64,000 nt of DNA from Phoronis australis (Eukaryota > Animalia > Phoronida), in NCBI GenBank assembly GCA_002633005.1, contig NMRA01000526.1, positions 198,887 through 262,886 on the forward strand, given 5' to 3'. Under the pieces are notes generated by a model. That model was not told the origin of the DNA, ran no database searches, and saw nothing but the letters and a program-made list of their open reading frames with translations. A program made the position numbers and the translations under genes. Shown in pieces: positions 16,828-64,000 of the stretch (within the stretch, counting starts at the first letter, position 1; each line of letters opens with the position of its first letter).

Positions 16828-17011
16828 TCCATTTTAACAGCTATTGTTGTTAGTGAAACCTGCGTTCCATTTTAACAGCTATTGTTGTTGGTGAAACCTG
16901 CGTTCCATTTTAACAGCTATTGTTGTTAGTGAAACCTGCGTTCCATTTTAATAGCTATTGTTGTTAGTGAAACCTGCGTTCCATTTTAACAGCTATTGTT
17001 GTTAGTGAAAC
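16828..17011. repeat. 38-bp tandem repeat (~4.8 copies) abutting the gap
   Basis: Unit TCCATTTTAACAGCTATTGTTGTTAGTGAAACCTGCGT. Confidence 0.95.
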
Positions 17012-17293
17012 GTACGGGGCATTGTCCGTGATCAGTGAAAAGTATTCGCTGACTTTGCCCTCGAAGCAGAAACACAACTGATCAATGCGCTCAGCATCAG
17101 TCATATTATTGGCTGCGACGTAACGCTGAAATTTTTTAAAGAATGCCACCCAGTTCCCATGGCTGTCGAAGGACATTGACCGTGGTGCGCTCGAGAAGGT
17201 GCGAGGTGGTGACGTGGCCCCCAGGCCCCGTGGGAATGCTTCCGCATGAGTCGGGCAGGGTGTCTCATAAATCGTTTGATTAGCGCGTCGCAC
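16964..17293 (-). pseudogene. Ty3/Gypsy-type gag N-terminal fragment
   Basis: SFDSHGNWVAFFKKFQRYVAANNMTDAERIDQLCFCFEGKVSEYF fits the FDG..W..F...F......W....K...L...L.G.A capsid pattern. Confidence 0.6.
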
Positions 17294-17452
17294 TCCGCAT
17301 GGGGGTATGGTGGCGCCATGCTAGGGCGCACGCGGCAGAAGGCCAGCTACAAAATTAACAACAAGTCAGAGTAAATGAATGAACAAGTTATTTTATAGGT
17401 AAATGATTCAGACACAAGTTCAGTACTTTTTATCGCATGTGTTCAGTCCTTA

Positions 17453-17700
17453 TTACTCAACAAGTTTGTAGTCCTTTAAAGAGTGGAATCTTTCAAAACA
17501 TACAACTGCATGCATTGCAACTTTGCAATCTACATTGAGTATTGCACTGCTTCCTTTTCTTTTTACGGTCCGAGCACACGACACAGTCTGGCCTGGATGC
17601 TCCAGTGCCCTCCAGGAAGTGCCGTCCAGATAGTCTAAACTCGATGAAGGTACTGGCTGGCCGTTCACGTGATTCTTTAACACACCCCAGAAGGCCCAGT
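17453..17700 (-). pseudogene. piggyBac transposase C-terminal cysteine-rich domain remnant
   Basis: A shifted frame reads FRLSGRHFLEGTGASRPDCVVCSDRKKKRKQC, then CKVAMHAVVCFERFH. Confidence 0.65.
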
Positions 17701-18127
17701 TATTCAAAAATTTTCTTGAAAATTATTTTGAGTTCAATAACACTTGAAGATAGATCACTAGATGATGAGAAAAGCATTGAAAGAAAATTTGCACTCAACA
17801 ACCTTGTTTTATAAAATGTTGCAATTTTGCAACAGTGGGAGCTGATGGTAGCAAATGTCCTATATTTAGCTAGACATTTGTTTGTAAAAATCACTACAAA
17901 ACAATCAGATGGAACACTTTATTTATGACAATTACCCTAATTATCAGCAAAAACTAAGTTTGGTGTATTAGTAAACATTTTGTTTGGTACATATGAAATT
18001 TCACCCTTCTCTCATTCCTGTAATGCAGTCAGCACGATGTGTTCCAAGACCTCCTCGGTTGCTCTGTGGGCCAGAAATTCACACTGCTGTATCTAAACAT
18101 ACAGTTTAGTTGTGGTAACTAAATATG

Positions 18128-19770
18128 TTAGAGACGGAAACAGTTTTTTTGTGAAGTAAAGCACAGATGAAGTTCACATTTCTCGAATGCAATTCCAGTA
18201 AAGCCATCAGCACAGTACATGCAACAACCTCTTTTCGCAACTTTTATGGGCCAGTGACCAACACCATCGCATCTAACCTCACGCGGAACTGCTGCCTTTC
18301 TTGCCATCTTTGGTAGTGCAGATTTTGTCAATTTAACCTCATCCAAGGATGGCCGGCCTCGCTTGGGAGCTTTGCACATGATCAGTGAAGTCGCAATCTG
18401 GGCCTGGAACATTCTCAGCTTCATGAGGTCCCTTTCGGGCTTTTGAAGAGCACGAAATTCCTTTTGCTGTACTTGTACTTTGCTGACTGAGCATCGAACA
18501 GGTCGACACCACCCATAAATTTATATTACTGACTGACACAAAATGGCCTTGGGATTTGGACATGGGACTTAAAGCTCTTGTCCCGTCTTCTGACAATATC
18601 AGTAGGATTAGCACCAACAAAAGATGAAACGACAGTTACTGGCTTGTTGTCATACCAGTGCACAACGCAGATGTTTTTGTTGACCTCGACTTTTTCTTCA
18701 TAGGAACCTCTTCCTTGTTTTTTCATTTCCTTTTCACTTTTGAGGCTGCACCCTTGAATACGATTGGCTCGTATAGTACCCAGGTACTGTATTCCACGTT
18801 CATGTAGCTTGTTAACCAGCTTGATACCAGAAAAGAAGTCCACAATTATTTTGTAGTTCTTGTAAGATGGCAAAGTTGTTGACAAATTCAAAACAACATC
18901 CGCACACAGGCCCAGCTCAGATTTAAACGTATGCTGACTGCCTCTGTAAACTTCAAAATCATACAGAAGTCCACTTACGGATGTACTAGCCCAGATTTTG
19001 AAGCCCCAAGGATGTGGTTTGCCACGAACATATTGTTTTATACCACTAAACTTCCCATTAAATTTTACCATCGTCTCATCGATTGAATTGTGCTCGTCGT
19101 GTAAGTTTAAGGCAGTTTTCGCGAAACCTGTCCAACCATGATGTCACCTTCCACAACTTTCTTTCTTTTCTTCATCAGTTACTAATAGGTTATTTGCAAA
19201 ATGGGTTGACGAAAGAATGTCCTGGAACTTGTTCCGTGACATTACATCAGCAACGGGTGGATATCTGGTTTCTGCCTCCCAATAGGTTCGATTGCCTGGC
19301 ATTTTAACAATTCCCATGCGTAAATACATCCCTATTGCCTGTTCCATCTCTTTTGTAGATATATTACTAGGAACACCCTTTTTCTGCATGGTGTAAATGT
19401 TGCTACTTTCTGTCGAAGCATCAATCACTTCAACAGTTATGAACTGTTGGAAGTATCTATACGGCGATAGAACCTCTCCATCAAGGGGTGCATCATGACA
19501 TGAACCTGTGAATGTAACATCACCAGGTTCGAACGTCTTGTTCCGCCACTTGAAAAGCTGCTTTTTGGTTGGCTGTTCACTAGTGCTGGGAGCAGGCTGG
19601 TTTATATAATGGGCTAGTGGTTCATCGTCTCTATCAGAAGTTTCATCATCGCCACCATGTTGCTGGGGAATGAAGTCTTCATCGTCATCAACATCACTAA
19701 CTAAGCCCTCCACTCTCATCTCCATCTAACACCTGTAGCACATCTCCCAACTCGAGGTTTGTCCTTGTCA
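18128..19770 (-). pseudogene. Degenerate piggyBac transposase (PGBD2/PGBD3-like lineage)
   Basis: Acidic N-terminus, then LSPYRYF, VMSRNKF, SIDETMVKF..IKQYVRGKPHPWGFKIW, GTIRANR, WYDNKPV, MGGVDL and GHWP...CCMYC...CELHLC. Several frameshifts. Confidence 0.88.
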
Positions 19771-20617
19771 TTTTGAATCTGAAAATTAACCAGGAAATCG
19801 ATTAGTGTTGCATTACGTGCATTTCAAAAGAAAAATCGAGTAATAAAAAATTACATTTGCTCGTAAAGACGCTGATTGAATGTAATATCAAAGAGACAAC
19901 GTACGTGACTCGGTAACAGAAAAAAAAAACAAAAGGTCTTCACAAAAATTAAGACCTGCTAAGTCAAACTTACATACAAGTCGAGGGAAAGCAGCATAAA
20001 AACTAACACAGTCATTGAGTTTCTACTGACACACAAAGTTTATTAACTCTAACTCCAATATATAGTGAATAGAAATTTGTGTGGGTTGTGACTGCAAAAC
20101 AAAAATAATGTTTAAATATCCGGTGATCTCGTCTACATCATAAACATGAATGAAGTCTGGACAGCTGCCTGCTGTATACAGTTTCACTATGAGTGGACAT
20201 TGGTTACTGACATAGTAAACAGAAACACAAGGATGTCCTGGAATAGTTATATAACAGAAATTGTTTTGCTGGGACAGTTGCATGTCAGAGGAAATGATTA
20301 AACTTGCACTTAATTAACACCAAACTTCAAGACATTACTGGGTTTTTCTTATAAACATTTAGCATTAACTGGGCATGAACCCAACATATTGTCAGACAGA
20401 AGACTAAGCACAAGTCTGTTATCATGGTGATGACAGAGCCCGGTGTTGCAATTGACCTATCGCCAGGATTACGACTGACTGCTTAACTGACCAATCAGAA
20501 CACAGCATTCTTGACACACCTTGGTCTGCTTTTCTGAGCCGCCATTTTACCCGACAAAGAGTACGTTGGCGTGTATAGTTTATTTTAGTTTATACATCAA
20601 GAAATTTTGCCATTATA

Positions 20618-20833
20618 ATGGTTAAACGGTGCTGCTATGGCGTCTGCAAGTCCGACAGCCGGTATGTGACTAGAGAGGAAAATCCTGTCTCATTTTGGCC
20701 ATTTCCCAAACCGAAAACTCATCTCGAGCAGTGTAAGCTATGGATAAAACTCTGTGGACGGCCACACGTACAGCTCAACTTGGCAATTTTGCGTGATTAT
20801 CCCAAGGTTAAACATAAATATATTTGTTCTGAG
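20618..20833 (+). CDS. THAP zinc-finger first exon (transposon-derived)
   Basis: MVKRCCYGVC...FWPFPKP...C..WI..CGR...YICSE, then donor gtaagt. Downstream exons not found. Confidence 0.75.
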
Positions 20834-21094
20834 GTAAGTATATTTTTCAGTTTTGTGGCTGTAGTGTAGGCGTATCTGATTTCGACTATGCAGTTTCACT
20901 TGTCTGGCGGCACCTGTTTGACCCTATCCAGTCGGCTAGTGCTGTATGAAGACTGACGTCAAAATATATTTAGTATACAACTTTGAACCAAGGCTAGTTT
21001 TACCCCAGCACTGACAATGGCACTAGCCCTAGCGGTAGTTAATGGCACTGTTATAATGAACATCGTTTTGTTTTGTAGGAAAGTGAAAAACCAT

Positions 21095-22435
21095 TTTTAT
21101 TACTTGGCGGAATGTTGGTCTGACAGCAAGTTTTTTTTTGTTTGTTCGCACTCTACAGGTCGCAATTTTCGTCCGATTTTCACGAAATTTACACACGACG
21201 TATAGATCCGAAAGTCCTAGAAGCCTATTGTTTTTGGTCATGATCGGATACAAAATGGCGGACGTGGCGGCCATTTTGTATCCGATTCCACAGTCAAATA
21301 CTCGTAGAGGCCGCATTTATCGACCTACATTGCTGAAAATCGGTACGAATATACTAGAACGCATGTGCTACATGGCGGAAATATTGGACGTGGCGCATGC
21401 GCACCCCGAAATATGACTAAAAACGTTTTCTCCTGTAGAGGGCGCATTTGCAAACCAATCACTTTCAAACTGGTCACGTGTTTGTTGAGTTTAATAAGCT
21501 TTTAAAAAAATTATTGAACCGGAAGTCACTTCCAAGATGGCGGCTGTGGCGCATGTTCACACGGTTTCAATCGCTCTGGTGTGGAATTTTTAACGGGAAG
21601 AGTAAATGACGTGAATTTTTGCATGTGGATTCCTTGAAGTATGGCCTTTCAAAAAGTCTGCGAGAGCGTATTTCTCAGACTTACCGTTTTGGAGTTATTT
21701 GACTTTGAATTTCAAAAAAAATGGTAAATTTTCAATTTTCTCGAAAATTTTTTTGATTTTTGCCAAACTACCACTTAAGATAGAATTTGTAACGGGCTTT
21801 CAGAAGATATTTTCCATTTTGCGCTACGACGTCTACTTTTTGAATTACTTAAGATTTTCGATACTGTTGTTCCTTCGGTCACCTAGGAAGCACGCAGCTG
21901 GCTGGCTTTCAGTTCACTTTGTTTTGATTATGCCTAGTTGACCCAGACTGACCCAGGCAGCACTGTTCTACTGTAGACTGGACCGTCATGTTGCGCCATC
22001 TATTGTTCTTTATTGTAGTTGATTGTATGCTCTATCAAAGTAGGTAGAGTTGTGGACGGGCTTTCAGAAGATATTTTCCATTTTGCGCTGCAACGTCTAC
22101 TTTTGAATTATTCGAGATTTTCGGATACCGTTGTTCGGCTTTCAGTTCACTTTGTTATGGTTATGTCTGTACAAGTTAACAGAGAGTTGTGACCCCGACT
22201 GACCCAACTAGCACTGTCGTACTGTAGACGGGAATTCCAGGCCAAATACTAATGTAAACATAACTTTGCTCTGCAGACTGTCACATAGTGCCACCTATTT
22301 TGGATTGTGGGAACAAAGCATATCTCGTCCGTCATGTTGCGCCATCTATTTTTTTATTGTAGTTGATTGTATGCTCTCAATTTGATTTCTTCGCTAGTCA
22401 CATGAATGTTATCGTGATATTCATAATTGCCGCCT
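21095..22435 (+). mobile_element. HINE/Helentron-type non-autonomous element with internal partial duplications
   Basis: T-rich start and 5' subTIR ACTTGGCGGAA (21102-21112), then TTTG-type simple sequence. Body homologous to 13790-14745 and 35205-35485. Confidence 0.65.
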
Positions 22436-22959
22436 TGATCAGCTTTATAAAAGTTTGTTTAAAAAATAATCAGGAAAGTTTTGCTCAACTATTTGAATGG
22501 AACAGAGTAATTGCCAAAAGCCAAAACTGTCAATTCGCAAGTTGACTTGCATGCTGGTGTATAAAATGCGCATTTTTTACGTGGTGCAACTCACAAGGTT
22601 CGGTAATTTGACCATAGGTCAGATAAAGGTTGACGGAGTGATGTTTCATGGACTTTGCTAAATAGTTCCGTTTGGTATTACTCATCTGGAGTCGTCTCAA
22701 AACTGCACACTTGAGTCCCAATAAACAGTGAGTGCCAGAATAACGAATTTCTGGAGCGTTCGCTTAATATTTCTCTGATTATCTTCAACGGAGCCGGGCA
22801 TCGACAAAGGCTTCCTGTAGGTGTCCATATATTGTAGCTTTAGTGTTTTTGATTGACGTACCCAGAATCTAATAAACACTTTTGCGTTTGTCCATATACC
22901 GCGAACACCCGGTTGAACAGTGGGTGCCAAAATAACGAATTTCTGGAGCGTTCGTTTAA

Positions 22960-25592
22960 CCCTTCAGAGCCTGACCTACATTCCACACAAATGTCGCAGA
23001 CAGCCTGACCCACTTATGCAGTAAGTGAAAACAACAACACTGTATGGACTTCAAAATACAACAACACCTTTATTAAGCTCAGTAACCCACAACATATATA
23101 CATTTTCTGAAAGGCTATAAAATTATGCATTCAATGATATTTTTAACTTTAAAAGTCCAAAATCAGAGGAAAATGTCACAGTTTGAAAACCAATGATTTT
23201 TTTTAAATAAAATATTTTGATGAAATCTAAAAAGGTTTGAAGTTCAATAATTTCATTTGAAGGCAACACAATGCAGGGTAATTTACAGAAATCTTATCTC
23301 AAATATATATTAATCAAATCCTGAAAGTTTGAACATTTTTGCTTCAACGGTTTTCAAAAAAAAAATTGTCATACTCACTATAAATCAGAAACCGGCTATG
23401 TACTTCTCACAAATGACACAATGCAAGAAAAGCATGTTCAACAGCTTAAATCCACTAATATCTCCATTTACACACTTGACATGATCACTTAGCATTAGTT
23501 CAGTCACTTTTTCATTTTTTTCCTCTGAATAGGAGCATTAGGGCGAGCCGGATCGTCAAATTGGTAATCTTCCATGTAATGATACCTGTGGAAACATGGA
23601 GCCGGACACATGTGCACTTTGCAAACAGTGCATATATATGCAGTGTCCACTCTTTGCAAGTGAACCCAACAGGGAGACCGTTTTGATGTAACTTCCGGGG
23701 CATGATTTAGATTTCGGTTGGAGCGGAGTGTCCCAACTGCCACACCGCTCTCGCGTACAGGCACAGCATTGCCACCGATAAGCTCCTTTGCGAGTAATAA
23801 GGTATACTGTTTCATAGTTATTTTCTTTCCTTGGCACATCTGGTAAAGCAAGTACGAATTAACACGACATATGTCCACGAGGTACCAAAATATCTTTAAG
23901 TACCAAACAAGTCCCCTCATCAATCGCTTGTGGCCATTGATCCTTTGATCAGAGAGATCAACCCCGCCCATATAAGAGTTGTACATGCCAATAGCTGCTG
24001 GACATGGGACGTCAATTTTAGCAAATTGACCATTTTGCTTGCTGGACCGAGAGACGTTTTCAGACTCTTCCTTTACTGGGACAGAGGTAAGTAGAGTGAC
24101 AAGCTTGTTGTCCTTCCACGACAACGCGGTCAGAGACTCTTTATACCGGTACTGTGAGTCGCCCCTTTTCATTGCCTTTACAGTTGCTGATGTCTTTTGC
24201 ATAATCTCACTTGGCAATCCTTTTCTGTTTGTTCTAACCGTGCCACATGCCAAGGTGCCTTGGGACAAGAGGTCCTCAAAAAGGGGGATGCTGGTGTAAA
24301 AGTTATCCATAAAAATACTGTGTCCCTTGTTTAAAAACGGTGATGACACATTCATGACAACGTCGTGTGTTGCTCCGTTGTCAGAAACACCGCCAGCTTC
24401 TTTCCCTGTGTAAATCTTCAAGTTCAGCACATATCCAGACGTAGATTCAGAAAGCATAAAAACCTTTAATCCCCAACGGATTGGCTTGTCCCGCATGTAC
24501 TGTTTGAATCCAAATCTGGATTTACAAGCGATCATGGATTCATCAATTGCCAGCTCACGCTCAGGGCTGTACACACTGCACAATGTGCCCACAATGATAT
24601 CTAAAACAGGTCTCACTTTATGTAATTTATCATATGCAGGGTCTGACCTGTCAGTTATTGCTTGTGAATTATCAATAAAATGAATATACCTAAGAATGCT
24701 AAGGAATCTGTCACGAGACATCACTTTCCGGAATCCCGGTGTTCCCAATAACCAATCCAGTGACCAATAGTCCTTCATGTTAATCTTTTTCACTACTCCC
24801 ATTGTCATAAACAGTCCCAACCAGGCTTGAAGATCACCACAGGTAAGTTCACTCCACTTACTTTTGTGTTTACTGGGATCTTTGGTTCTTTGTTGTGTCG
24901 CATATAGATTTGTCTGAGCAGTGATAAGTCTGAACAGAGCGTCAGTGAAAAATAGCTTGAACAATTGAACGGGGGAAGCCGATTTCAACGAGTCCTGTCC
25001 CCCAAGAGAGTCGAGAGCTTCAGCAGACAGTCCTGGTGTTCCTCTAAATCGAATATTAGCGTCAGTCCGCAAATTCGCGTCATTACTCCACCCAGTTTGT
25101 GGCTCATTCACATCTCCCAGAAAATTGTCGTCCACTTCAATTTCCGGTGCGTTCTCAAGGTCCTCCAAATCAAAATCGAGATCGGGTTCATTGTCCGAGT
25201 CCGGTCTTCTCAAACGTGACAAAGGAATATCATCATCAGGATCGTCACTTTCATCCTCTAAATCGCTGTCAAAGTCCGTATTTTCAAGCAAAGATAATGC
25301 ATCTTCAACAGCCATCATTCCTGGTTTCCGAGGAAACGCCATCTTGTAAACAAATCTTAAGAAATTCGCAAAAATTCGCCAAATATCACGACAAAAAAAA
25401 TCTTTAGACACTCAATTGATTGAAAAGCAATGACGTCACTACTTCTTGTGTACACATAACTGAAAATAGTTAACAATTGATGCAATAGATGGCAGAGGAT
25501 GTCTATGGAACTTTCCATCGCATATATGCGAGTCTCGGCTCTCGGGGTTTCAAGATCAGGTACGCACATATGCGAGTCTCGGCGCTAAAGGG
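22960..25592 (-). mobile_element. Full-length piggyBac element
   Basis: TTAA at 22956-22959 and 25593-25596; imperfect TIRs CCCTTCAGAGCC / CCCTTTAGCGCC; subterminal direct repeat ATATGCGAGTCTCGGC x2; uninterrupted transposase ORF. Confidence 0.93.
23504..25342 (-). CDS. piggyBac transposase, intact (~612 aa from MAFPRKPG)
   Basis: DDD triad motifs AIDESM, FMDNFYTS and MGGVDLSD; KQYMRDKPIRWGLK; C-terminal Cys/His-rich domain; basic NLS-like tail. The ORF-track start at 25411 is probably upstream of the real ATG. Confidence 0.93.
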   Translation of the reverse strand: MAFPRKPGMMAVEDALSLLENTDFDSDLEDESDDPDDDIPLSRLRRPDSDNEPDLDFDLEDLENAPEIEVDDNFLGDVNEPQTGWSNDANLRTDANIRFRGTPGLSAEALDSLGGQDSLKSASPVQLFKLFFTDALFRLITAQTNLYATQQRTKDPSKHKSKWSELTCGDLQAWLGLFMTMGVVKKINMKDYWSLDWLLGTPGFRKVMSRDRFLSILRYIHFIDNSQAITDRSDPAYDKLHKVRPVLDIIVGTLCSVYSPERELAIDESMIACKSRFGFKQYMRDKPIRWGLKVFMLSESTSGYVLNLKIYTGKEAGGVSDNGATHDVVMNVSSPFLNKGHSIFMDNFYTSIPLFEDLLSQGTLACGTVRTNRKGLPSEIMQKTSATVKAMKRGDSQYRYKESLTALSWKDNKLVTLLTSVPVKEESENVSRSSKQNGQFAKIDVPCPAAIGMYNSYMGGVDLSDQRINGHKRLMRGLVWYLKIFWYLVDICRVNSYLLYQMCQGKKITMKQYTLLLAKELIGGNAVPVRESGVAVGTLRSNRNLNHAPEVTSKRSPCWVHLQRVDTAYICTVCKVHMCPAPCFHRYHYMEDYQFDDPARPNAPIQRKKMKK

Positions 25593-25717
25593 TTAAAGCA
25601 CACGTGATTTTTCTTGCCTGTGCTTTATGGCAAGCTGTTATACGTGTATGATCATAAATTTCCGTATTGAAAAGTTTTAAGACGGGGTTTGTATGCAATT
25701 CATCATATGCTTTTTAC

Positions 25718-26913
25718 CTTTTATTCATGGCCATTACTTGTATGGTCTCCTCTCTACTATCTTCGTCGATCTGCAATTAACAACACAATTTTACAGTATA
25801 AAACTTTCTTGATTTTGTCTGAACATCGTGTATGTTATCTTTTCTCTGATTGATTGTATATAATGATATTTAGCTTTCTCTTGATTTTGATTGGACAAAT
25901 ATTAAGCTCTTATTAAGGTAATAAAAATTCTTTCGTTTAGTACGTTTACACATTTTTGGAATATCTTACCAAAACGGTCATTTCGGTCACCGAATTCAGC
26001 GTTGTTTTGGAGCCATATACGTCTACCTCAAGTGCGTGAAATCGCACTTGATCAGACTCTTTGATATCAGTTCCAGTTGCGTGAGATCCCCACAATTTGA
26101 TCTCCGTTCCGTCATCAAGGCTGACAATTCTTCTTTTGTAGTGGGGTTCTTCCTTTAGATCGGAAACATTTGACACTGTTCCTGCGTAGGAACATCGTCG
26201 CTTTTTCGGAGATGCTTTCAACTCTTCGGTCGTTATGTACTGCGGTTTTAGAAATTCCTCAATTTTGCTTCTATCAATCTCGAATTCAGCTACGTTTCCG
26301 AAAATCTGAAAAACATGACAGATAATTGTTAAAAACTAGATGATTTAAAAATAAATCAAATTCTTAGCTGACTGACGTGAAAGTATATGATAACTCATAC
26401 GTAATAGCTACTAAAGGTAAACCTACCGTAGTTGCGTACAATGCTCAATAGACTAATTTGCGTTCACGTCTTTCTGCAAAAACTTTCCGACATATCAGTG
26501 TAGCTATCTTACTTTATATAGGAACATATGCAATCACATTACTAGTTGCTCTAAAACGTTGAATATTTATGTATTTCAAAGTTATATCACCAAGTTCATG
26601 AACTACATGCAAACACTACAATAAGCCTCTATAATGCAAAGCCATTATTTTAAAGTACAATAATACATTACATAAAATGTACTGCAGTTACCTGATATTC
26701 TTTTTTGTGTACTCGGATCGCATTGTCCGTTTCGTACGTGGTTGTTAATAGTACATATGTATCTTTTTTCAATTCCTCATGAATTTGAGGGAGGAATAAC
26801 GTTTTAATACTTTTTGCTGTTGTCATGACGGGCGCCGCTTGGCTAATAACTTCGCCTTGTACATTTCTACGTACTTCTGGATCGCTTATGACATAATATG
26901 AACATGTAGCCAT
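25718..26913 (-). CDS. Spliced gene for an OB-fold (RPA/SSB-like) protein, 3 exons seen, 3' end not found
   Basis: Exons 26913-26692 (ATG, 74 codons), 26305-25970 (112 codons) and 25770-25718, with GT/AG boundaries and compatible phases. G.V.....L.D...IKLW......V.F..L.V..Y......NS...T pattern typical of OB folds. Confidence 0.65.
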
Positions 26914-26962
26914 CTTCTTGTCTTTGCTTGGAATAATTGTCTGAATGTGATTACGATTAAGC

Positions 26963-26970
26963 TTTTTATA
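26963..26970 (-). promoter_or_regulatory. TATA box of the OB-fold gene
   Basis: TATAAAAA on the minus strand ~50 bp upstream of the ATG at 26913. Confidence 0.5.
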
Positions 26971-40206: not shown

Positions 40207-40253
40207 CTTTTGTTCATGCCCATGACTTCTATGGTCTCCTTGCCTACTAAAAT
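40207..40253 (-). pseudogene. Paralog of OB-fold gene exon 3
   Basis: KETIEVMGMNK + gtaaaa donor versus EETIQVMAMNK at 25770-25718; the following intron is also alignable. Confidence 0.6.
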
Positions 40254-48596: not shown

Positions 48597-49240
48597 CTTT
48601 ACAATTAAAAATTACTGGCGTCAGTTCATATAATGTGAATGTGAGAGTTGTCGAGTCAGTTTTGTTATAACTCAGCTGTGACAAGTTCGGTCGTTGTTTG
48701 CTTTTGTTTACGAGTCAGTCGACATGCCACACTGTTGCTGTGTACTGGGATGTACTTATCATTGCCCAGAGCCTGTAAGCAGCCCTGCTGTGATGTTGAG
48801 TAGAGGGAGTGAATACAGGCCCCGTTCAACACCCAGTGACAAGGACAGTTCGTCGTCCAATGAATATATCGGCGAGCCAAATTTTGATAAGTTATTGAGG
48901 ACTTGTCTAAAGTATTGGAGCAATTTAGCAGGTGCCAGGTGTGTGGTGAGGGAGTCACACGGCGAGATGTAAGCAGTTTGTGTGCTCAGGTCACCATCCA
49001 GTGGGAGTGTGTCGCGGGACACTCGGCAAGTGAAACAACTGTTCCTCTGTCCGTGAGGCGATAATCAGTACATCTCGGTACGCAGCTACCGTTTGGCATG
49101 TTGATTGGCTCGTAAACAAAAGCAACCGGCGAACAAACTAATCACAACAGAGGTAGAACAAAGACTGACTCTGCAGCTCTTACAGTAAGACTACATGGAA
49201 TGTAATTGGCGCGAAATACTTGCCTCCCAAAACGTAAAGG
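48597..49240. mobile_element. Foldback/MITE-like element with long imperfect inverted arms
   Basis: Left arm ...GAGTCAGTTTGTT...TTGCTTTTGTTTACGAGTCAGTCGACATGCCA...GATGTACT matches the reverse complement of 49058-49190. Confidence 0.7.
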
Positions 49241-53300: not shown

Positions 53301-54390
53301 TTTAAACTGGTAAGGCAATGAGTGATTGTGCATGGGACTTAAATGTGGTTTTTGTTATACATTTTTGTAAACGAATAAGAAACATGGTTTGGAGTGGTGC
53401 ATCTTGTGAAGACTTTCATTAATTTTGGAATGGTAAGAATTGAATGACGAGCCATGTACATAGAGAAATGAGAAAAAACTTGGTCTACATCTTCATGTGT
53501 ATGGCCCACCATTACAAAACCAACTTTAATTTTAGAAAAAATTCGCATTTCAACCAAAAGTGCACAAAGCCCAAAAACTACAATATTTTTATTTTCCAAC
53601 CAACAATTGTCCATCTGAAGATACAGAATTTGGGGCAAAAAGCTCATTGATGACAATGTTCGTAGCAGGACATTGGCTGTCGCATCTGGCCCATGTCCCC
53701 ACTGCCCATCATCAAAAAAATCGATCGTTTGGTGTCCATGGTTAATTACACCAGTGAGATGAGTTCTCAATTTATGCAATTTTTGTAGCGTTTTGCTATA
53801 AATATTGAAAGCAGGCAGATTCGTTTTTTGTTGGTTCATGCCATCCAGTATTATGCATGCGTATCTTCTTGGGCTGGACCTTGCCTTTGAGCAGTGTTTA
53901 TAATATTTTTTCTCTCATTGCTGAAAAGTAATGAGAATAGTTTCATTATTCAGCAGACAACATGTCCTTTAAGATACTCTCATTTCCACCAGATTAGAAT
54001 GCAGGAACCTCANCAAAAGTGCACAAAGCCCAAAAACTACAATATTTTTATTTTCCAACCAACAATTGTCCATCTGAAGATACAGAATTGGGGGCAAAAA
54101 GCTCATAGATGCCAATGTTCGTAGCAGGACATTGGCTGTCGCATCTGGCCCATGTCCCCACTGCCCATTATCAAAAAATCGATCGTTTGGTGTCCATGGT
54201 TAATTACACCAGTGAGATGAGTTCTCAATTTATGCAATTTTTGTAGCGTTTTGCTATAAATATTGAAAGCAGGCAGATTCGTTTTTTGTTGGTCCATGCC
54301 ATCCAGTATTATGCATGCGTATCTTCTTGGGCTGGACCCTGCCTTTGAGCAGTGTTTATAATATTTTTTCTCTCATTGCTGAAAAGTAAT
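50400..54390 (-). pseudogene. Sola1-like (DUF7869-type) transposase exon, four copies
   Basis: DGMDQQKTNLP...LYLQMDNCWLENKN...FVMVGHTHEDVDQVFS. Copies at ~50400-51150, 51760-52385, 53300-53935 and 54014-54385. Confidence 0.7.
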
Positions 54391-55620
54391 GAGAATAGTT
54401 TCATTATTCAATAGACAACATGTCCTTTAAGATTCTCTCATTTCCACCAGATTAGAATGCAAGAATCTCAGTTATCACTTAACATGGGGACATTTTGAAA
54501 TTAGAACACTCCATGTATTTTCAGTTTTACCACCAGACTTTACAAATATTGATATGCAAAGAAACCAAAACATTACAAGTTTTAGAAGCATTTCATATAC
54601 AAACGATTTGGCAACTTTTGCTCCTAGCCTTGTTTAACTAAAGATTGACTAAATGCAAAAAAACTGCCGGCTCTATACATTTGGGGATTTCATGACTGAG
54701 AAATTTCATGAGAATGAAACTTCTTAGAAATCTCGGTTCTGGTTAAATTGACTACAGTTCTATACACAGTTGGGTGATTTAGCCACATCGACCTGTAGAA
54801 CCAGCTGCAACAGAATGTTTTCATTCTTGCTGATGACTCATCCCTTAGAAAACTCACCGTGTTTATCTGTAAAGCAGTTGTAAGAAATCTTTGGTGCTCA
54901 GTCTTAATAATTCTCAAATGGACATTTTGCTGATACACAATTTGAGTATTCTATAGTCAACCACTTTTCAGTGTTTCAGTGACGATAATGAGACGATTTA
55001 TCATAAACACATGTACTATGCTTAACATGTAATTGGTTAATATGAACACAACATAAACAATTTCACTTGCCAGATACAGTTTATCCACAGGCAGTTTCTT
55101 TTTAAGTATTTCATACGTCTTAGCATACCCAATTACTCTCCCCACTTGTATCTGTTTTGAGGCAATGCGTCTATCCTTAAAAACAGTTTTGCTGTCCAGC
55201 TGATTCTTGCTCTTTGTGGTGGTCGGTACGTTAACTTTTACATCACGGTTGGCAAAAAGGTCCTCTACCACTATTCCTCTGTCTGCCAAGACAGAGTCAC
55301 CCTTAATGAACAGATCCCTGTCTCTAAGAAGATCGCTTTTCTCAATGATCTGTCAATCACCGACAGTCTTCCGACCAAGAGCACCGCTGCCCATTGCAGT
55401 TTGAGATCTTCTTCACAGGAATTTCAGTGGTATCGAGAATCACCTGCGTGCTTGGAAAAAGCTGTTTGAAGTGACTAGGGAAATGTTCGTTAATAATGTC
55501 TCTACTTGGCCACAGCACAAGCTCTTTCAGCTTATGGAACAAGAACATTGCCCATGTCTTGAAGATCTGAGCCACTGTGTACATGCTGACTCCAAAATCC
55601 AAAGCTATAGAGTTCCATTA
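51521..55620 (-). pseudogene. ISL2EU/Harbinger DDE_Tnp_4 transposase remnants (longest 54957-55620; partial copies 51521-51760 and 52980-53298)
   Basis: DFGVS...IFKTW..FL...LWPSR..I..HFP..F...FP.TQVILD.TEI, then LADRG..V.D......VNVP......QL......DRRIAS..I.VERVIG..K.Y.IL. Confidence 0.85.
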
Positions 55621-56974
55621 CCATCATTTTCACTGCAGTCTACGAAAATATTTTAGTGACAGCTGCATGGAAAAAGTTATGATTACACATTACAAGTGAC
55701 GCAAGCCAATTTAAAAAGGGTAGCAAATCCAAGATGGCCACCAATTCCAAGGTGGCGGCCAAGTTTGAGAACCATACTCTTTCTCATAATTTTATCTTAT
55801 TAACTGACAATTTGTTAACCTTTCAACATTGGCTGAAGGTTAAAAATGGAGATGACCGCCAATTTCAACAAATAAGCTTTTTCATTTTTGTCAAAAAATT
55901 CTTTTGTTTTCACCTTTCACCAAAATTTAATGAAAACATTTAAATAACGCAAAACCAATCCAAAATTATAAATATGGCCCCTAAATCAACGATGGCAGCC
56001 AAATTTCAGACTCAAACTTTTTAAGCTGCGTTATATAAAACAACATTCATAAGAAAAAAATTGTTCTTTTTTCACCAAACTTGGCATACCACTTCAAATA
56101 TACGTGTAGTTTCCATAACTTTTTTGGCTGAAGCAAGTCAGCGTTTTAATAAGACTGACTTGCTTGAAAACTGTCCATAACACTTGACAAATCACAAGAT
56201 TGCTATTCATGAAATCTGCTACCGTTTCAAATCGTGACATCACAATCAATTGCATCTTCAAATGTCTCTGTTTCATTCCAATAGCTTATAATATATATGT
56301 CTTGATTCTTTTTCAGTTTCTTTACATGGCTATTATATAAGATTTTCTCCTGACTCTTCATCAAAACAAACATGGCAAATGCGCTTTCTTACGATTTTGC
56401 ATTGCAAAATGTCAGCTACACCTTGTAGCTCATTATTGCTGTGATCTGGAAACTCACTTGCAAGGTCAATGTTCAGCATCCTCAGTATTTTCTGTATTCG
56501 CATTTTTTTCAGCACTTTGGAAGACGACCGCTTTTTCAGCTCCATCCTCACTTCTTCAAGACCTACTTTCTCTTGCTGGCGCTGTTTCCACCCAAGACTG
56601 ATCGAGCATGCTCTTCTCACCTGCTTTTCCAACCTTTCTAAGGTATCCACAACTTAATAATCTTCTGGCCATGGATCTTGGAGGTGAGATAGTCGAGTGT
56701 TGCCCCTGCAACCTTTTACTGAGCAGCGATAACCATCCCAACTACTTCGTTGTCCATGTTGGGAAGACCTTCTGTTTCAGTCTTTTGTCTCGTCCTTTCA
56801 TCCACATTCATTGTAAAGTATCGTTTGTATTTTCGCTTAACAGATTAACAGAAGATTCAAAACATTTTGTCGTCATGTTGGCAAACAGTTGTGATTCTGG
56901 TGGTTATTGATGAAGGTAGTGTAATATGGCATCGTCTGGTAAATCTTCGCTGAACATGTCTGTGGTAGCACTTA

Positions 56975-57940
56975 TCTAAAACAGGTCTCACTTTGTGTAA
57001 TTTATCATATGCAGGGTCTGACCTGTCAGTTATTGCTTGAGAGTTATCAATAAAATAAATATACCTAAGAATGCTGAGGAATCTGTCACATCACTTTATG
57101 GAATCCTGGTGTTCCCGATAACCAATCCAGTGACCAATAGTCCTTCATGTTAATCTTTTTCACTACTCCCATTGTCATAAACAGTCCCAGCCAGGCTTTA
57201 AGATCACAACAGGTAAGTTCACTCCACTTACTTCTGTGTTTACTGGGATCTTTGGTTCTTTGTTGTGTCGCATATAGATTTGTCTGAGCAGTGATGAGTC
57301 TGCATAGAGCATCAGTAAAAACAGCTTCAACAATTGAACGGGGAAGCCGATTCCAACAAGTTCTGTCCCCCAAGAGAGTCGAGAGCTTCAGAAGACAATC
57401 CTGGTGTACCTCTAAATCGAATGTTAGCGTCATTCTGCATATTTGCGTCACTACTCCACCCAGTTTGTGACTCATCCACGTCTCCCAGAAAATTGTCGTC
57501 CACTTCGATTTCCGGTGCGTTGTCAAGGTCCTCCGAATCAAAATCGAGCTCTGGTTCATTGTTGGAGTCCGGTCTTCTCAAACGTGACAAAAGAATGTCA
57601 TCGTCAGGATCGTCACTTTCATCCTCCAAATCGCTGTCAAAGTCCGTATTTTCAAGCAAAGATAATGCATCTTCAACAGCCTTCATTCCTGGTTTCCAAG
57701 GAAACACCATCTTGTAAACAAATCTTGAGAAACTCTCAAAAAATCACCAAATATCACAACAACAAAATCTTCAGACACTCAGTTTATTGTAAAGCAATGA
57801 CATCAATACTTCGTGTGTACACATAACTAAAAATAGTTAACAATTGATGCAATAGATGGCAGAGGTTGTCTATGGAATTTTCCATCGCACATATGCGAGT
57901 CTCGGCTCTCGGGGTTGCAAGATCCGGTACGCACAAAGGG
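56975..57940 (-). mobile_element. Truncated, frameshifted copy of the 22960-25592 piggyBac (5' part)
   Basis: Colinear with 24600-25592 at roughly 90% identity by eye; ends in GGG|TTAA at 57940. Confidence 0.92.
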
Positions 57941-58202
57941 TTAAAGTTCTAGCAATAAAGTTAACATTGTTCAGAACAATCAACACATCCCATACATTTA
58001 TCATAATTGACCACAACAGATGGCTTCATGATGGACTGGGGATAAATGATTCATAACACAATTCCGTTCAGTGCAAAGCATGATTGCTTATTTCAGGACT
58101 GGTACCACAACGTCAACAGATAAAACCTGGCTCAACCACACAATGAGTGAACATTACTAATCTTACACTATGAACTGAGTGGAGTTCATTCAATTGCTTC
58201 TA

Positions 58203-58479
58203 CCCGTGGAGGTACTCCACTATTTTTTGCCCAGACACGGGCTTTAAGAAAGTGGACAAGTCACCTTGTCGGAATTTTATCCCATAACATGGCTCTTATA
58301 CATGTATATACTTGGTATTATTTCAATAAACAGAATTCCTTACTCCAAAATTGAACCATGTTTGTTGGAATTCAATTGAAAACACTCTTTAGTAGGCAAT
58401 GTGCAATAAATGAACCCACCCTTCTGAGCAGCACACCCCGTTTATACCTTCTTCATTTACGTGAGTACCCTCCCCCCGG
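58203..58479. mobile_element. Short non-autonomous DNA element (CCCG..GGTACTC termini)
   Basis: CCCGTGGAGGTACTC ... GAGTACCCTCCCCCCGG imperfect TIRs. Confidence 0.45.
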
Positions 58480-58633
58480 AGGGGGCTTCTAAACCTAGAT
58501 TCTATTTTGAAGTTGGCGATTGTAACTTGACCTAATTATCTTAGTATGTGTGTTCAATTCGCAAAAATCCAAAATCCATCTGTTATCTACAAAATAATAC
58601 ATCTGGATAATCTAGTGAAATAATGCTACAATG

Positions 58634-58982
58634 TTAATTGTCCAGTCCTTTGCATAATTTCTCGTGTCGTGAAGTATAATCTCTTCGGGAAAACCCTTTG
58701 CCACATTTACTACACATGTGGGGCTTGACGTCACTGTGAGTTGTCTGGTGTCTTGCCAATGACCTCTGATGATGTGTTGTGAAGGCACAATGATCGCAAC
58801 TTAAGTGTGGCCTGAAGTGTGGCCGGGACAATATGATCATCTAGATGAGATTTTCTAGTGAACGTCTTGCGGCACAACTTGCACTCTGAACGACTGTGTG
58901 TCCGCTGATGAGACAGGAAGTTACTCTTCTTGTCAAAACTCTTCTCGCACTCAGTACACTTGTATATTGTGGGTGAGTGCAC
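58634..58982 (-). pseudogene. C2H2 zinc-finger array (4 fingers, frameshifted)
   Basis: CTECEKSF.....HQRTH, CKLCRKTF, CDHC.....RHQTTH and CSKCGKGF across two frames. Confidence 0.8.
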
Positions 58983-59559
58983 CTCATTGTGTATTCACAA
59001 CCCACTTTGTGAGGCAAAAGTACGCCCGCATACCGTGCATGGAATTTTTTAGCACCGTGGCTCCCTCTGTTATGGTCTTCAAGTGCCGCTTTGCTCTGAA
59101 AGTGCCAGTTATAGAAAACTAAAAAGAAATCTATTATTACATGGAATCCGGAACAGATTCTGTGAACGGCATTGGCTGTCCGCAGTGAAACGCTTGATAC
59201 CTTCTTTCCTCCACAGTAGCAGTCCTTTCCCAGTGTTGGCTGTTGGCGACCACCATGGTCGCGACAGTACCATGACCCTTTTTCAACATGTGGTGGTCCA
59301 CTTGCTATTTCTCAGATGTCGCCTGAACTGCTTTGAAGAAGCGAATCTCGCCCACAGTCCTTACCCCGCAGACTTTCATCCATGCATCTTCAAATGACAT
59401 GGTTCCATCCTCCAGAATCCTGCAATAAATTGAGTGTATCTTGCTGAATATTGGCCTCTTGCAAATAACGCGACCCCTTCTGTTGGTTTACATGTTCTCA
59501 GTTGCTGGCAGCGGAGTATTCTGCCCACCGACTATTGAGGTTGTTTCATCACCCGAGTG

Positions 59560-59760
59560 ATTCTCAACCTTAATCAATGGTGGAGAATCCCAGGGAACCT
59601 AGCCCTTCGCAATGCAAGTCTTCAAATGGTCCACGTGCACAACTGATTAGCCATTTCGGCAGAAATCCAGGTATTCCACTCTGATTTCAAATTACTTAAT
59701 GATATCTACCCACTCGGTCGTTTTGGAGTCAAAAATTGGCAGTTGTTTCTCCATTCTTTT
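59560..59760 (-). pseudogene. Gypsy integrase C-terminal remnant
   Basis: SVVHVDHLKTC matches the VVH.D.LK end of the integrase GPY/F module; stops nearby. Confidence 0.45.
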
Positions 59761-60503
59761 AACTTGACCTGGCTGAATAGAATGTCCAACTGGACATAAT
59801 TTGTTAACTGACATTCCGGGACTGCAGTCATGGTTCGTCGGGAATGGGTTGCTCGGAGAATAATGAATGTTCCCCGTAATTGTATTGTTTACGTTGTGGT
59901 GGTCAAAAGCGCTACTCTAGCAGTCTGCATTTTTAGCTGGCGAGAGCACAGAAGTATCTGGATTCAATTGAACTGATCACCTGACAGTAGTTAAATATTG
60001 GGCAACTCTTTCCACTAAATTAGACATTGCATAAATGAAAACAAAACCAAGGAACAAAGTAACCTGTATATAAGGAATAATAATACCCAACTATCAAGTG
60101 CCATAATCGCAATGAAAAATACTGAATTACAAAACCAGGAACCGGAATCAAACGGACCCTACCGACAAATGGATAACTGGACTAGGTACAGAAACTCAAT
60201 GTACCCACGGAATACTCGAAAAAAATAAAAGATAAACTCCTAACACATTTCAAGAGTAGAGGTAAGCAGAAAGTAGAATGATAAAACAGGTTCCAGTCTA
60301 TGGTGCCCAACCAATGTTATCACCACAGGTTCATCCCCAGGCCACTGGGAACCGGACACCTCATTGGACAGTTTGATATCATGTGAGCTTATAGAATTGT
60401 GTGATTTTATTTTTCATTTCCATGTCATATTCCATAGCATTCATAAATATTGTAATGGCTGTACTTTGCGAGCAAGTTTTCTGATATGCAGAATTGATTA
60501 AAC

Positions 60504-60555
60504 ACACAACACTTTTCGTTATTGACAGTACACAACACTTTTCGTTATTGACAGT
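60504..60555. repeat. 26-bp perfect direct duplication
   Basis: ACACAACACTTTTCGTTATTGACAGT x2. Confidence 0.9.
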
Positions 60556-61112
60556 CTTTATTTCATTTCGTTCATATGTTTGGAATAAAACTACACTCAA
60601 TGGAACATTGATGGAGTAACTGACCAAGAGACATGATTAAAATGTTCACGATGTTTCAAAACATACTTGTTTCATTCTCAAGTGGAAATAAAATGACGTA
60701 GTAATGCCACCACTGAGCATCAGCTGGAGACATACATAGTGGGACACAGCAGGTGTGAAATACTGTAACAATGACAAATGAAGGGGGGAACAGGAAGGTC
60801 ACGTAAACAAGTGTAATATGTGGCGCGATTGTGTTTGCTGCTCATTCAAAACAGGCTTCTCCAATGCAGTCAAAAGGGACTCCAATACTTTCAATCACAG
60901 CACATTGTGTGTTAAGGTGTGATTGTTTTAACAATTATACTGATACAGTTACAGTTGGTAATGCAGGCAGAAATTTTTTTTCATAGCAGAGTGAATGGGA
61001 GTGTGAATGAGTGAAAGTCCTTTACTGCCAGCTAACCTCCTACCCCGCAAACATGTCATTTCCTGTATTTTGCTTTAAAAGCATGGTCTATATTTTTATT
61101 CTGTGTCATGTG

Positions 61113-61268
61113 TTATGTGTAGGTGGAACAATCCACCGACTGCTATAATAATGTTATGGCTCATATTATTATGTGTTGGTGGAACAACCCACCGACTGCT
61201 ATATTATGGCTCATATTATTATGTGTAGGTGGAACAACCCACCGACTGCTATAGTAATGTTATGGCTC
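61113..61268. repeat. 50-58-bp tandem repeat x3 with GGTGG/CCACC stem
   Basis: TTATGTGT(A/T)GGTGGAACAA(T/C)CCACCGACTGCTATA...TTATGGCTC units. Confidence 0.85.
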
Positions 61269-61402
61269 GTTTCAGGAAACTTGTTTACTTCACTTAAGAC
61301 CAAAATGTCATGAACCGTTGTTTTCTAAGTTGTCATCTTCAGTCACTTAATTTAGACAAAATTTTGATCTCGAGTCCAAGGTCAATTTTCTTGAAACGAA
61401 CC
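61264..61402. mobile_element. 139-bp MITE (Harbinger-like termini)
   Basis: GGCTCGTTTCAGGAAA ... TTTCTTGAAACGAACC, a 14/16 inverted match. Confidence 0.55.
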
Positions 61403-64000
61403 TTTAGTTTTTCTGTATTGATGTAGTAGATATAGACTGTTCATTTCATGAATCATGACTGTTGTGCTAAGATATTGACGGGATTGTTATGGATATAGAT
61501 TATTCTTATATCGAGTTTTATATACTGTTATACTATGCAACATTTTTTCAAAAATAAATATTTCCATCCATGGTGTTTTTCTGTATGTAGTTCTTTATTA
61601 TGAAAGCCATACTCCAGATCTCTAATAGGTACACTCACAACGTGAAGCAAGGCCTGCTCCTACAAGCCTTACAGAATCCCCATTATCTATGAGTGACTTG
61701 GTCGCAAAACTACTCTCCACTATCCATTTTTGGTCCCTAATAACTGTTACAGGATTTAAATTTTATTTGATTGTATTGATTTTTGTGTACCTTAGATGTT
61801 TGACTACTTCATTTATTGCGACCAAGAAAAAACATTTGAATGGCTTGGTATGCTTTTAGGAATTTACTTCGGATTAGTTCAGATTTGTTTTTTCCAAACA
61901 AAATCCAGGACTCGTACTGTAGAAACACAAGTCATGGAAACATCTGGTTTGGAATCCAATCTTTGTGAACATTGGTTAATTGGTGGTAGGAGGAAGCTAT
62001 TTCACGTGTTTGGATGACGAGAGGTGCAAGAATTTTTTTACAGCATCTTGAGAAAAATATTTCAAGGTTTCAGAGAAATCACTGCCACGGCATTTCTTTT
62101 CAGGCAGTCCTTGTGTACTAGTCACAGTGGCTCCCATTCATATTTTTCACTCAAGAAGTAGACTCATGGTCATGTTTGCAAACAGAATGTTTGACCTCTG
62201 GACAGAACTGGCATAATAGGGTTCAGTTTATCTTAAGATAATTTTAATATTTTCCAAGCACAGACATTTTCAGGTTTCCATAGTACATACAAACTATAAT
62301 TTCTCAATATGACTAGGAACATTCTTTGACAAGAAGAAAAGACAACTTTAACTTGCATTGTATTTACCTCGATTACAACTTCAGGGGAAGTAAGTACCAA
62401 AAACTGTACAATCATGTAGTCCACCAACGTCTTCTGAAAATGGTACAAATGATTCCTAACTCAGGCTCAGAATTTTGTATACACAAATTGGGATCACATA
62501 AAGTCTGCAGCAGTGGGTCTCCTGCCAGAGGGCAGCTGTCTAATCTTGTCCAACAGATGGCGCTCACTGACGCCACTAGTCCTCTCATCACTACTTTCCT
62601 CACTACTTCCTTCATAATCACTTTCACTGTCAGACATTCCAACTTTACTCTTTTGTTTCTTCTTTTTTGATTTGTGTTTCTGCTTGGATTTCTTTTTTTT
62701 CTCTTTCTTATGCTTCCGGGACTTTGTTTTATTTCTGTGTTTGTCCTTAGTAGATTTTTCGATAAAAAGTTCACTGGACATGTACGTCTGAACAACATCA
62801 GAGATGGGCTCATCTGAAAAAGAGATGTTAAAATAGGAAGAGAATTTATGAGATTGCCAGACGCGCACTGCAGACGGGAGCTATGGGCTTAGTCAACCAA
62901 CTTGAATCCCAATTTGCAACGCACAGCTTTTGTCTAAGCCTAATGGACCACAAGGTATTCCATCACGAGGCAATGAGGCAAATATCCATCTCGCTTGAGG
63001 ACAAAGGCAAATATCCAGTCCTTTTTCCTCACAACCCCAAAAACTTGGTGTTTGCTGGTAGCCCATACGGCGCTATGAGCTCAACATATTGGCATTCAAG
63101 TTTGGTGGTAAGCACATCGGTCACTGTCTCTGATAAGCTTAAACGTACTGTTAGAAACTTTATAAACAATATAATGGAACATGCTACATTTTAAAATCAC
63201 AATGGACTTTCCAGTACATAGTAAATTAACTAATAAGGCCCAAACACTAACATTTCCCTTGGAGTACCATACTGTAAGTTGTCGACATAAGGGATTTTTT
63301 TAATCCTGACAGAATTTCCACTGAATGTTTTAAAACAGAACATGCTTTATACAAGACAAATCGGGGATTCTCACCCATTGCCTTGCTGTCAGCTGGAGGA
63401 AGGCTCGGTCCATAGATGTCGTCATCGATCTCTACTGACCTTTGACCTTTAGGCCAATCAAATGAGTGTGGTGTGCCTGACTGTTCACTGCCATCTGGTG
63501 ATTTACAATGAGAAAAATTCAACAATGTTACTTTATAACCAACACTTGAGTAACTGACATTTTTGAGACCCATTTTCAAAATAATCCTTGATGACCAAAG
63601 AAATGTGCATAGCACACGATCATAATGCCTGAACTGTGCAGTCATATGAGCTTGTTTTTATTTTGCAAAAAATCATTGTTTAATGAAAGATAATGATTAA
63701 AAACTAGACTGTATTTCTGCTGGATAGTTTCACAGACAATTACTCGTGTTCTCTGAACAATTTTCCATCATCAGGTATACAGTTATGGAGTAAATTGCCA
63801 ATAAACATGACAAACAAATACATTAAAACAGCAAGTTAGTTAACTAAGGGCTTCCACCATCTTGTGAAAGATAATGCAGCAACATTCGCAAAATTTGCAC
63901 GCAACTTGGTAACGTGTGGGATTAACAATCGAGGATTTCTACCTCACGAACTTGACTGTCGGATAAACGACTTCCACTTTTTACCAAGTGTTGTAGCATT

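Follow-up and report, generated by a model that had tools for sequence, protein, structure and literature searches.

A transposon-remnant tract of about 45 kb with antisense RNA, a candidate uni-strand piRNA cluster

The window analysed here, a 64,000-nucleotide stretch of genomic DNA, contains an intergenic tract of about 45 kb (~16.8–61.6 kb) that is filled with transposon remnants and free of host genes. To its left lies a uridine phosphorylase (UPP) gene on the plus strand, identified from an internal exon through to the final coding exon (4213–15543). Exons at 4213–4374 and 15414–15539 matched solved UPP structures (E = 1.6e-6 and 8.4e-9, respectively); the latter aligns with their C-terminus, so that the C-terminus is complete, with a stop codon at 15543 and the gene's own AATAAA at 15675. 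RNA was present in the last-exon bin in two of three runs. A separate homologue search with one UPP exon gave no match. The initial annotation had placed UPP beside the array, also on the plus strand, with the linkage crossing a gap. The two are separated by an assembly gap of 744 N (16084–16827), and no well-supported contig bridging it was found among the DNA contigs listed. On the right the tract is bounded by a GPATCH1-like host gene on the minus strand, whose last coding exon (62494–62880) matched residues 854–930 of the 931 of human GPATCH1 (E = 5.5e-4, a composition-biased match) and carried minus-strand RNA only, in 3/3 bins. The next ORF upstream of this exon found no support in the PDB. 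The stretch without host genes, put at ~47 kb in the initial annotation, thus stands for ~16.8–61.6 kb but not for 62.4–64.0 kb, where an expressed host-like gene on the minus strand has its 3′ end; the right end of the tract lies near 61.6 kb, not 64 kb. The flanking genes are convergent.

All five piggyBac positions proposed earlier were recovered on the minus strand by Pfam (PF13843) or tblastn. The most complete is a full-length element at 22960–25592 with an intact 611-aa ORF (PF13843, E = 8e-91), flanked by TTAA at both ends, with matching CCCTT termini and three aspartate motifs; its nearest named relative is from the brachiopod Lingula anatina (59%). A 5′ part at 56973–57940 is a second copy of it, 92% identical. 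The others are a C-terminal fragment at 17456–17722 (tblastn E = 8e-4 with homologues and 3.7e-5 with the ORF at 23.5 kb), a broken copy at 18131–19725 (PF13843, E = 1e-25 and 4e-18) and a broken copy retaining its 5′ end and end motif at 36992–38793 (PF13843 in three ORFs, E = 2e-11, 3e-12 and 3e-32).

Further DNA-transposon-type pieces are also on the minus strand. A YqaJ nuclease fragment at 39374–39832 (PF09588, E = 8e-11), predicted at 39 kb, corresponds to the second ORF type of ISL2EU, elements described as including a YqaJ ORF (PMC4482050). Between 49982 and 55617 lies a tandem array of 3–4 copies (93–97% identity) of a block fusing DUF7869 with a PHIS-type DDE_Tnp_4 domain, the latter over 51–55 kb, where a DDE piece had been called at 55 kb. 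DNA depth over the block is roughly 280, whereas single-copy DNA is at about 45, which suggests that it is truly multi-copy. An old DUF7869-type transposase-like remnant at 42522–43439 (PF25273, E = 0.004) shares 48–58% amino acid identity with the 50-kb copy. The pieces at 43 and 50 kb, earlier termed Sola1-like, are therefore DUF7869 pieces at 43 and 50–54 kb, for which Sola is a tentative label. The sole plus-strand coding piece found is a THAP-domain 5′ fragment, PHIS/ISL2EU-like, at 20579–20866 (PF05485, E = 4.5e-5), which lies within high-copy bins.

LTR-type pieces are few. A gag fragment at 16913–17320 (minus) has 231 homologues at E ≤ 0.001; each of the 18 that were scanned has a PNMA, Retrotrans_gag or CCHC knuckle domain, and a back-search with 146 homologues matched 17 kb alone, on the minus strand, confirming the earlier call. 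A PDB search with this piece gave no match. The second is a DUF5641 fragment at 47238–47501 (minus; PF18701, E = 2.4e-9), absent from the initial annotation, which we take to be the C-terminus of a Bel/Pao element. The same back-search gives no support to the Gypsy half of a 'ZnF/Gypsy' assignment at 58.6 kb, where the piece identified is a C2H2 zinc-finger remnant at 58637–58994 (minus; PF00096, E = 2e-11), a putative mobile piece. Two other putative mobile genes are minus-strand remnants. One, at 32395–34482, combines DUF6729 (PF20499, E = 7e-7) with C2H2 zinc fingers (PF00096, E = 5e-12), and its former label of Dada-like was not confirmed; an ESM Atlas search with the ORF at 33.9 kb returned only unnamed clusters with scores under 0.9, and the literature searched made no mention of DUF6729 or DUF7869 by name. 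An apparent duplication around 33 kb is an assembly artefact, as one DNA contig runs directly from 32873 to 33339, past the single N at 33338. The other is an RPA-like OB-fold gene, predicted twice and found twice: remnant 1 (25949–27072) reached top ESM Atlas scores of 0.95–0.96 to OB-fold clusters, a recognition below threshold, with no sequence homologue among longer proteins, and remnant 2 (46381–46608), likewise putatively mobile, shares 68% amino acid identity with it. Rfam gave 0 matches at the gathering score. By eye, and outside all counts, 'gag-like' sequence at 59.7 kb, a Harbinger-like start at 30.2 kb and a SWIM/YqaJ-like start at 36.5 kb are further minus-strand candidates.

To quantify orientation, stop-free ORFs of at least 48 aa within 16828–64000 (n = 355; 177 plus, 178 minus) were scanned against Pfam, a procedure that treats both strands alike. 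Of 21 strong matches (E ≤ 1e-4), 20 were on the minus strand and one on the plus, and all eight weaker matches were minus. An additional scan of 141 plus-strand ORFs of 37–47 aa (110 minus-strand ORFs of that size were outside it) found no transposon family, only 3 unrelated matches (E = 0.01–0.035). Orientation is thus far from balanced, the THAP piece being the one exception. The binomial p of about 1e-4 given earlier for independent pieces is too low, because the 92% identical piggyBac pair and the tandem array at 50.5–55.3 kb are not all independent; collapsed to separate insertions the count is 15/16 (p = 0.0005), and with related pairs counted once 12/13 (p = 0.003). In the initial annotation the YqaJ and DDE genes of native ISL2EU were said to face opposite ways; the text of the ISL2EU paper (PMC4482050) nowhere uses the word 'orientation', and we gave the point no weight.

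Could the skew reflect local duplication, or a single large composite element whose captured fragments all took up its own orientation, with plus-strand RNA incidental? Real duplications exist (the piggyBac pair, the tandem block, the two OB and two DUF7869 remnants) and the joins between pieces are abrupt. The bias nevertheless survives the counting of related pairs once, and TTAA on both sides of the 23-kb piggyBac marks an insertion of its own. Neither a helicase nor a Rep domain was among the Pfam matches, the tract has no long inverted repeat at its ends, and such an origin would leave the antisense RNA of the three runs unexplained. We consider this origin improbable.

Transcription was assessed in three stranded RNA-seq runs (X5–X7) from one study of other individuals, tissue not given. 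With 18–19% of each run used, coverage was thin, and bins covered the tract up to 35.3 kb and from 44.0 kb onward. Strand controls were concordant, the first mate being minus in the UPP exon bin and plus at the GPATCH1-like exon. Plus-strand RNA, antisense to the remnants, extends over 46669–61600, its depth climbing toward the 3′ end (Spearman 0.94 with position in 20 low-copy bins). Plus exceeded minus in 22 of 23 bins over 46669–62009 and in all 18 over 50004–62009; within 55340–60008, 96.7% of RNA was plus (7/7 bins, all three runs). A lower level of plus-strand RNA covers the piggyBac and OB remnants at 23304–28639 (8/8 bins, an estimated 42 pairs vs 3), and RNA over the 611-aa piggyBac ORF is almost exclusively antisense. 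The plus-strand transcript anticipated by the initial annotation is thus seen as long single-strand antisense RNA over two stretches only, 50.0–62.0 kb and 23.3–28.6 kb. In the 15 near-single-copy bins (DNA depth ≤60), 94% of RNA depth was plus (an estimated 140 pairs vs 9), which rules out genomic DNA contamination as the source.

Across all 55 bins, 68% of RNA depth was plus and plus led in 44. Minus equalled or exceeded plus in 7 of the 36 bins with DNA depth ≤300, located at 17.3–20.0 kb, 22637–23303 and 44.0–45.3 kb (very low). In the first, minus-strand reads differ from the 18131–19725 piggyBac sequence at nearly every listed site, often with a 3-base insertion, and so appear to be sense RNA from a sister copy elsewhere. 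For the minus-leaning RNA at 22637–23303 (depth 5.7/10.7/1.2) we have no explanation. Plus-strand RNA is nearly missing at 16.6–20 kb (depth 0–0.5).

Plus-strand depth climbs toward 61.5 kb, where an AATAAA at 61553 is a candidate poly(A) signal, and then stops, which fits a long polyadenylated precursor. Since plus-strand RNA with no listed splice joints could also be pre-mRNA, we considered whether the tract could be one giant intron, its host gene on the plus strand and sense insertions having been purged from it. This seems very unlikely: UPP ends at 15543 and the right-hand neighbour is on the minus strand, so the tract is an intron of neither, and the Pfam ORF scans, including the 141 short plus-strand ORFs, found no plus-strand coding exon. 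The climb and the stop that follows it, moreover, look more like the 3′ end of poly(A)-selected RNA than like an intron.

Remnants lying one way, with RNA read from the opposite strand, point to a likely piRNA source. We consider that the tract is probably a uni-strand piRNA cluster. Its precursor, long and likely polyadenylated, would yield antisense piRNAs silencing many transposon families. One continuous plus-strand transcript would cross the tract, end at the AATAAA at 61553 and be cut into antisense piRNAs, and selection would have retained antisense insertions as added silencing guides. Both the bias and the RNA could be explained without small RNAs if a plus-strand non-coding or read-through RNA had no piRNA role, sense insertions being lost for cutting or mis-splicing it and antisense ones left. 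Such an RNA would require selection to maintain transcription of 45 kb of transposon debris in some other role. Plus-strand AATAAA signals, furthermore, are not depleted in the tract (30 vs 38, p = 0.40), unlike in the UPP region (6 vs 19, p = 0.015); depletion of plus-strand splice donors in the tract was not found either. The undepleted signals weigh against the cluster reading as well. Mouse read-through genes lacking piRNAs are also described as having no antisense enrichment (PMC11615739). An RNA of this kind is accordingly an unlikely explanation.

The putative piRNA precursor may, with about even odds, start at the UPP promoter, transcription then continuing beyond the poly(A) signal of that gene. 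If the scaffold join is correct, UPP lies immediately upstream on the precursor's strand and is expressed. Alternatively, the promoter may lie inside the 744-N gap or the array, one possibility being that of the THAP element at 20.6 kb, which faces plus.

By analogy, this locus is closer to the uni-strand clusters of slugs, and to read-through clusters that follow a gene, than to flamenco. Clusters of the slug Arion vulgaris are described as mostly uni-stranded, with densely packed transposon fragments read antisense (PMC11615739), and those of Deroceras laeve (PMC12506671) share this one-strand density and opposite-strand reading with the present tract; piRNAs were sequenced there, whereas long RNA alone is seen here. 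Slugs probably belong to the same broad animal group as the source of this DNA, the brachiopod piggyBac relative being the lead. Mammalian piC-DoGs lie behind a gene and extend across transposon-rich DNA as far as a new poly(A) site (PMC11615739); as in the present tract, the transposons are antisense, the gene ahead is protein-coding and shares the strand of the RNA, and a second poly(A) site is likely, but the mammalian cargo reported is LINE and ERV rather than mostly cut-and-paste elements, and UPP read-through is here a candidate only. Mosquito core clusters, as reported, are intergenic, single-stranded and behind a gene, with an RNA-seq peak at the cluster end as here, the same 3′ climb being ascribed to oligo(dT) priming in read-through clusters; they are enriched for antisense endogenous viral elements, none of which was identified here (10.1101/2022.08.22.504762). 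Drosophila flamenco and flam-like clusters are likewise uni-strand antisense arrays, but Gypsy LTR elements drive their strand bias, antisense Gypsy sequence being what defines the flam-like group, and these clusters act in follicle cells (PMC10643416). With LTR-type pieces making up about 1.5% of the tract (two pieces, 672 bp) and DNA-transposon-type pieces about 33%, the earlier description as flamenco-like does not hold in the strict sense. In the limited literature consulted, titles and opening lines of abstracts stated no DNA-transposon-dominated uni-strand cluster in lophotrochozoans or cnidarians, which is no proof of absence.

Uni-strand transposon-antisense piRNA clusters are already known, and the architecture itself is not new. 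Added here are strand-specific RNA for a candidate precursor at a locus that had been predicted purely from its sequence, an identifiable cargo mostly of DNA transposons, not Gypsy elements, and exact test sites: single-copy sequence at 55.3–60.0 kb, the candidate 3′ end near 61.6 kb and the UPP junction. These bear on whether read-through piRNA clusters exist beyond mammals and mosquitoes, and on whether one-strand clusters control cut-and-paste elements. A bolder and rather doubtful possibility is that the whole 45 kb is a read-through piRNA master locus behind UPP in a little-studied spiralian, holding an antisense memory mainly against cut-and-paste superfamilies; its cargo would include an intact full-length piggyBac trapped in the array, and a piggyBac family that is still being expressed from elsewhere. 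If true, gene read-through would be a way of forming piRNA clusters that is ancient in bilaterians and independent of retroviral invaders.

The transposon tract is intergenic, lying between two convergent genes at ~16.8-61.6 kb, because uridine phosphorylase (UPP, plus strand) stands to its left and a GPATCH1-like gene (minus strand) to its right. The window has a GC content of 34-44% and is interrupted by a single 744-N gap (16084-16827) and by lone Ns at four positions. The initial annotation had placed UPP on plus, which is borne out by an internal exon and a last coding exon that match solved UPPs, the latter as far as their C-terminus; an AATAAA at 15675 (plus) belongs to the UPP side. 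It had also described 16828..64000 as free of host genes, which holds from 16.8 kb up to ~61.6 kb. At the right end, a minus-strand ORF (62497-62880) matches human GPATCH1 at its very C-terminus (E 5.5e-4; a composition-biased match) and gives RNA from the minus strand only; a PDB search with the ORF next upstream found no support.

Seven tandem 56-bp copies in UPP (5512-5903) span an apparent intron/exon boundary (acceptor and exon start), and the reading frame seems to carry on from the last copy only. A motif search of 9212-15411 found no exon for the UPP segment that should follow the 9.2k exon and precede the last one; such an exon may be concealed by the single N at 13305, or missing. 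A 294-bp unit in 3.9 identical copies (12152-13304) ends at this N and may be an assembly artefact. The gap is flanked by two copies (13791-14540 and 21148-21875; 76% identical, same orientation) of a non-coding repeat present in very high copy number.

DNA-transposon-type sequence covers ~33% of the tract, a share that includes DUF7869, which we take to be a DNA transposase; LTR-type sequence covers 1.5% and unassigned coding remnants 8.5%, the remainder being unidentified or non-coding repeat. Homologue searches identify the minus-strand piece at 17k, first noted as a gag, as an LTR-element gag. A full-length piggyBac (22960-25592, minus) is flanked by TTAA at either end, its ends match and its 611-amino-acid ORF is unbroken; it is possibly still mobile. 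Its closest named relative is from the brachiopod Lingula anatina (59% identity), a pointer to a lophotrochozoan host and no more. This element is low-copy, and its ORF is nearly devoid of sense RNA. MITE-like elements of high copy number, their ends inverted, lie at 48627-49197 and 29023-29715 and cannot be oriented. PMC4482050 supports YqaJ as the second ORF of ISL2EU. A 150-bp repeat at 32874/33339 was rejected as a true duplication, being an assembly artefact that a DNA contig skips.

Coding remnants point almost uniformly one way. A Pfam scan of all 355 stop-free ORFs of at least 48 amino acids in 16828-64000 (177 plus, 178 minus) gave matches at E≤1e-4 in 21 ORFs, 20 of them minus. All eight weaker matches among the 355 were minus, as were the five loci found with 14 piggyBac homologues as queries, in agreement with the five remnants first reported; ORFs of at least 150 amino acids numbered ten on minus and none on plus. 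The claim that all 14 coding remnants are minus, the opposed ends of one ISL2EU aside, is largely right, the exception being a plus-strand THAP match (20579-20866). All 141 plus-strand ORFs of 37-47 amino acids, scanned for counter-examples on that strand only (110 minus ORFs of this size were left out), contained no transposon family. When every insertion is counted a single time, the 50-55k tandem block contributing a DUF7869 and a DDE piece, 15 are minus and 1 is plus, which corrects the original binomial p of ~1e-4 to 0.0005; these orientation counts leave out three pieces recognised by eye (30.2k, 36.5k, 59.7k) and every non-coding repeat of high copy number. A 5′ piece at 57k is 92% identical to the intact piggyBac, and the 50.5-55.3k block holds 3-4 copies at 93-97% identity; its joins coincide with single Ns, and DNA depth, a rough guide, suggests a real multi-copy block (~280 vs ~45). 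That local duplication or a composite element accounts for the shared orientation we regard as improbable; with related pairs counted once, the figures are 12 minus and 1 plus (p=0.003).

RNA was drawn from three paired-end runs (X5-X7, all from a single study under the same species label, tissue unstated; 18-19% of the reads per run) and mapped, with one DNA run (X1), to 15300-35299 and 44001-64000. First-mate depth in the UPP last-exon bin was 1.13, 1.52 and 0 on minus and 0.05, 0 and 0 on plus, and in the GPATCH1-like bins first mates fell on plus only; the libraries are therefore stranded, a first mate on minus denoting plus-strand RNA. In the 15 bins with DNA depth ≤60, one of which sits in the tandem block at DNA depth 0, 94% of the RNA was plus (~140 vs 9 pairs, estimated from depth) and 13 were plus-dominated. 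Plus RNA dominated 8/8 bins at 23304-28639, 18/18 at 50004-62009 and 7/7 at 55340-60008 (96.7% plus), bearing out the expectation of plus-strand RNA in stranded data. Plus depth climbed with position over 20 low-copy bins at 44.0-60.0 kb (Spearman 0.94) and dropped in the bin containing AATAAA 61553, the sole plus-strand AATAAA of 60.7-63.8 kb. Three minus-strand poly(A) signals (61594, 61762, 61812) lie just to the right of this candidate plus-strand one, so the 3′ ends of the long plus-strand RNA and of the GPATCH1-like mRNA may face each other in a tail-to-tail arrangement. In the 44001-64000 mapping, 37-43% of mapped reads were at least 99% identical to the window, and no splice joint of plus-strand RNA was among those listed. 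With UPP complete to its C-terminus on the left and a minus-strand gene on the right, it seems very improbable that the tract is a giant intron.

Some results run the other way. Over all 55 bins, plus made up only 68% of RNA depth, and minus equalled or exceeded plus in 7/36 bins with DNA depth ≤300. Four of these (17.3-20.0k) lie over the two left piggyBac remnants; sense reads over the 18-19.7k piggyBac mismatch the window at almost all of the listed sites, and thus likely derive from another copy that is expressed; such a copy would make a natural target. Strong minus-strand RNA (depth 5.7, 10.7 and 1.2) occurred in a low-copy bin where the intact piggyBac has its 3′ end (22637-23303), and the two remaining bins, at 44.0-45.3k, were close to the detection limit. 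Plus RNA was nearly absent beside the gap, and a 3′-biased library would give the same pattern. Plus-strand AATAAA was not depleted in the tract (30 vs 38). A long RNA with no piRNA role from which sense insertions were purged is a reading we consider unlikely.

One-way remnants are thus accompanied by antisense RNA with a 3′-weighted profile. We favour, as probable, a long plus-strand precursor that would yield antisense piRNAs. The precursor would be polyadenylated and probably unspliced, starting by UPP read-through or from a promoter within either the gap or the array; the primary piRNAs cut from it by the PIWI pathway would be antisense to piggyBac, PHIS-type elements and further families, and new antisense insertions would contribute guides and be retained. 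The piRNA-cluster interpretation is strengthened by the RNA, short of proof.

Known clusters offer parallels. Slug piRNA clusters are mainly uni-stranded, with dense transposon fragments transcribed antisense (PMC11615739; PMC12506671), and a planarian preprint describes unistrand clusters as the majority in several other animals (10.64898/2026.01.28.702291). Mammalian clusters downstream of genes (piC-DoGs; PMC11615739) and mosquito core clusters (10.1101/2022.08.22.504762) originate by read-through behind genes; in the mosquito clusters RNA-seq signal is higher towards their end. In flamenco-type clusters the bias is due to Gypsy elements (PMC10643416); the tract, with its small LTR-type share, differs in this respect, and the flamenco-like label does not fit in its strict sense. 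The locus probably works like a uni-strand, possibly read-through, piRNA cluster, and is a candidate further example of a kind already known.
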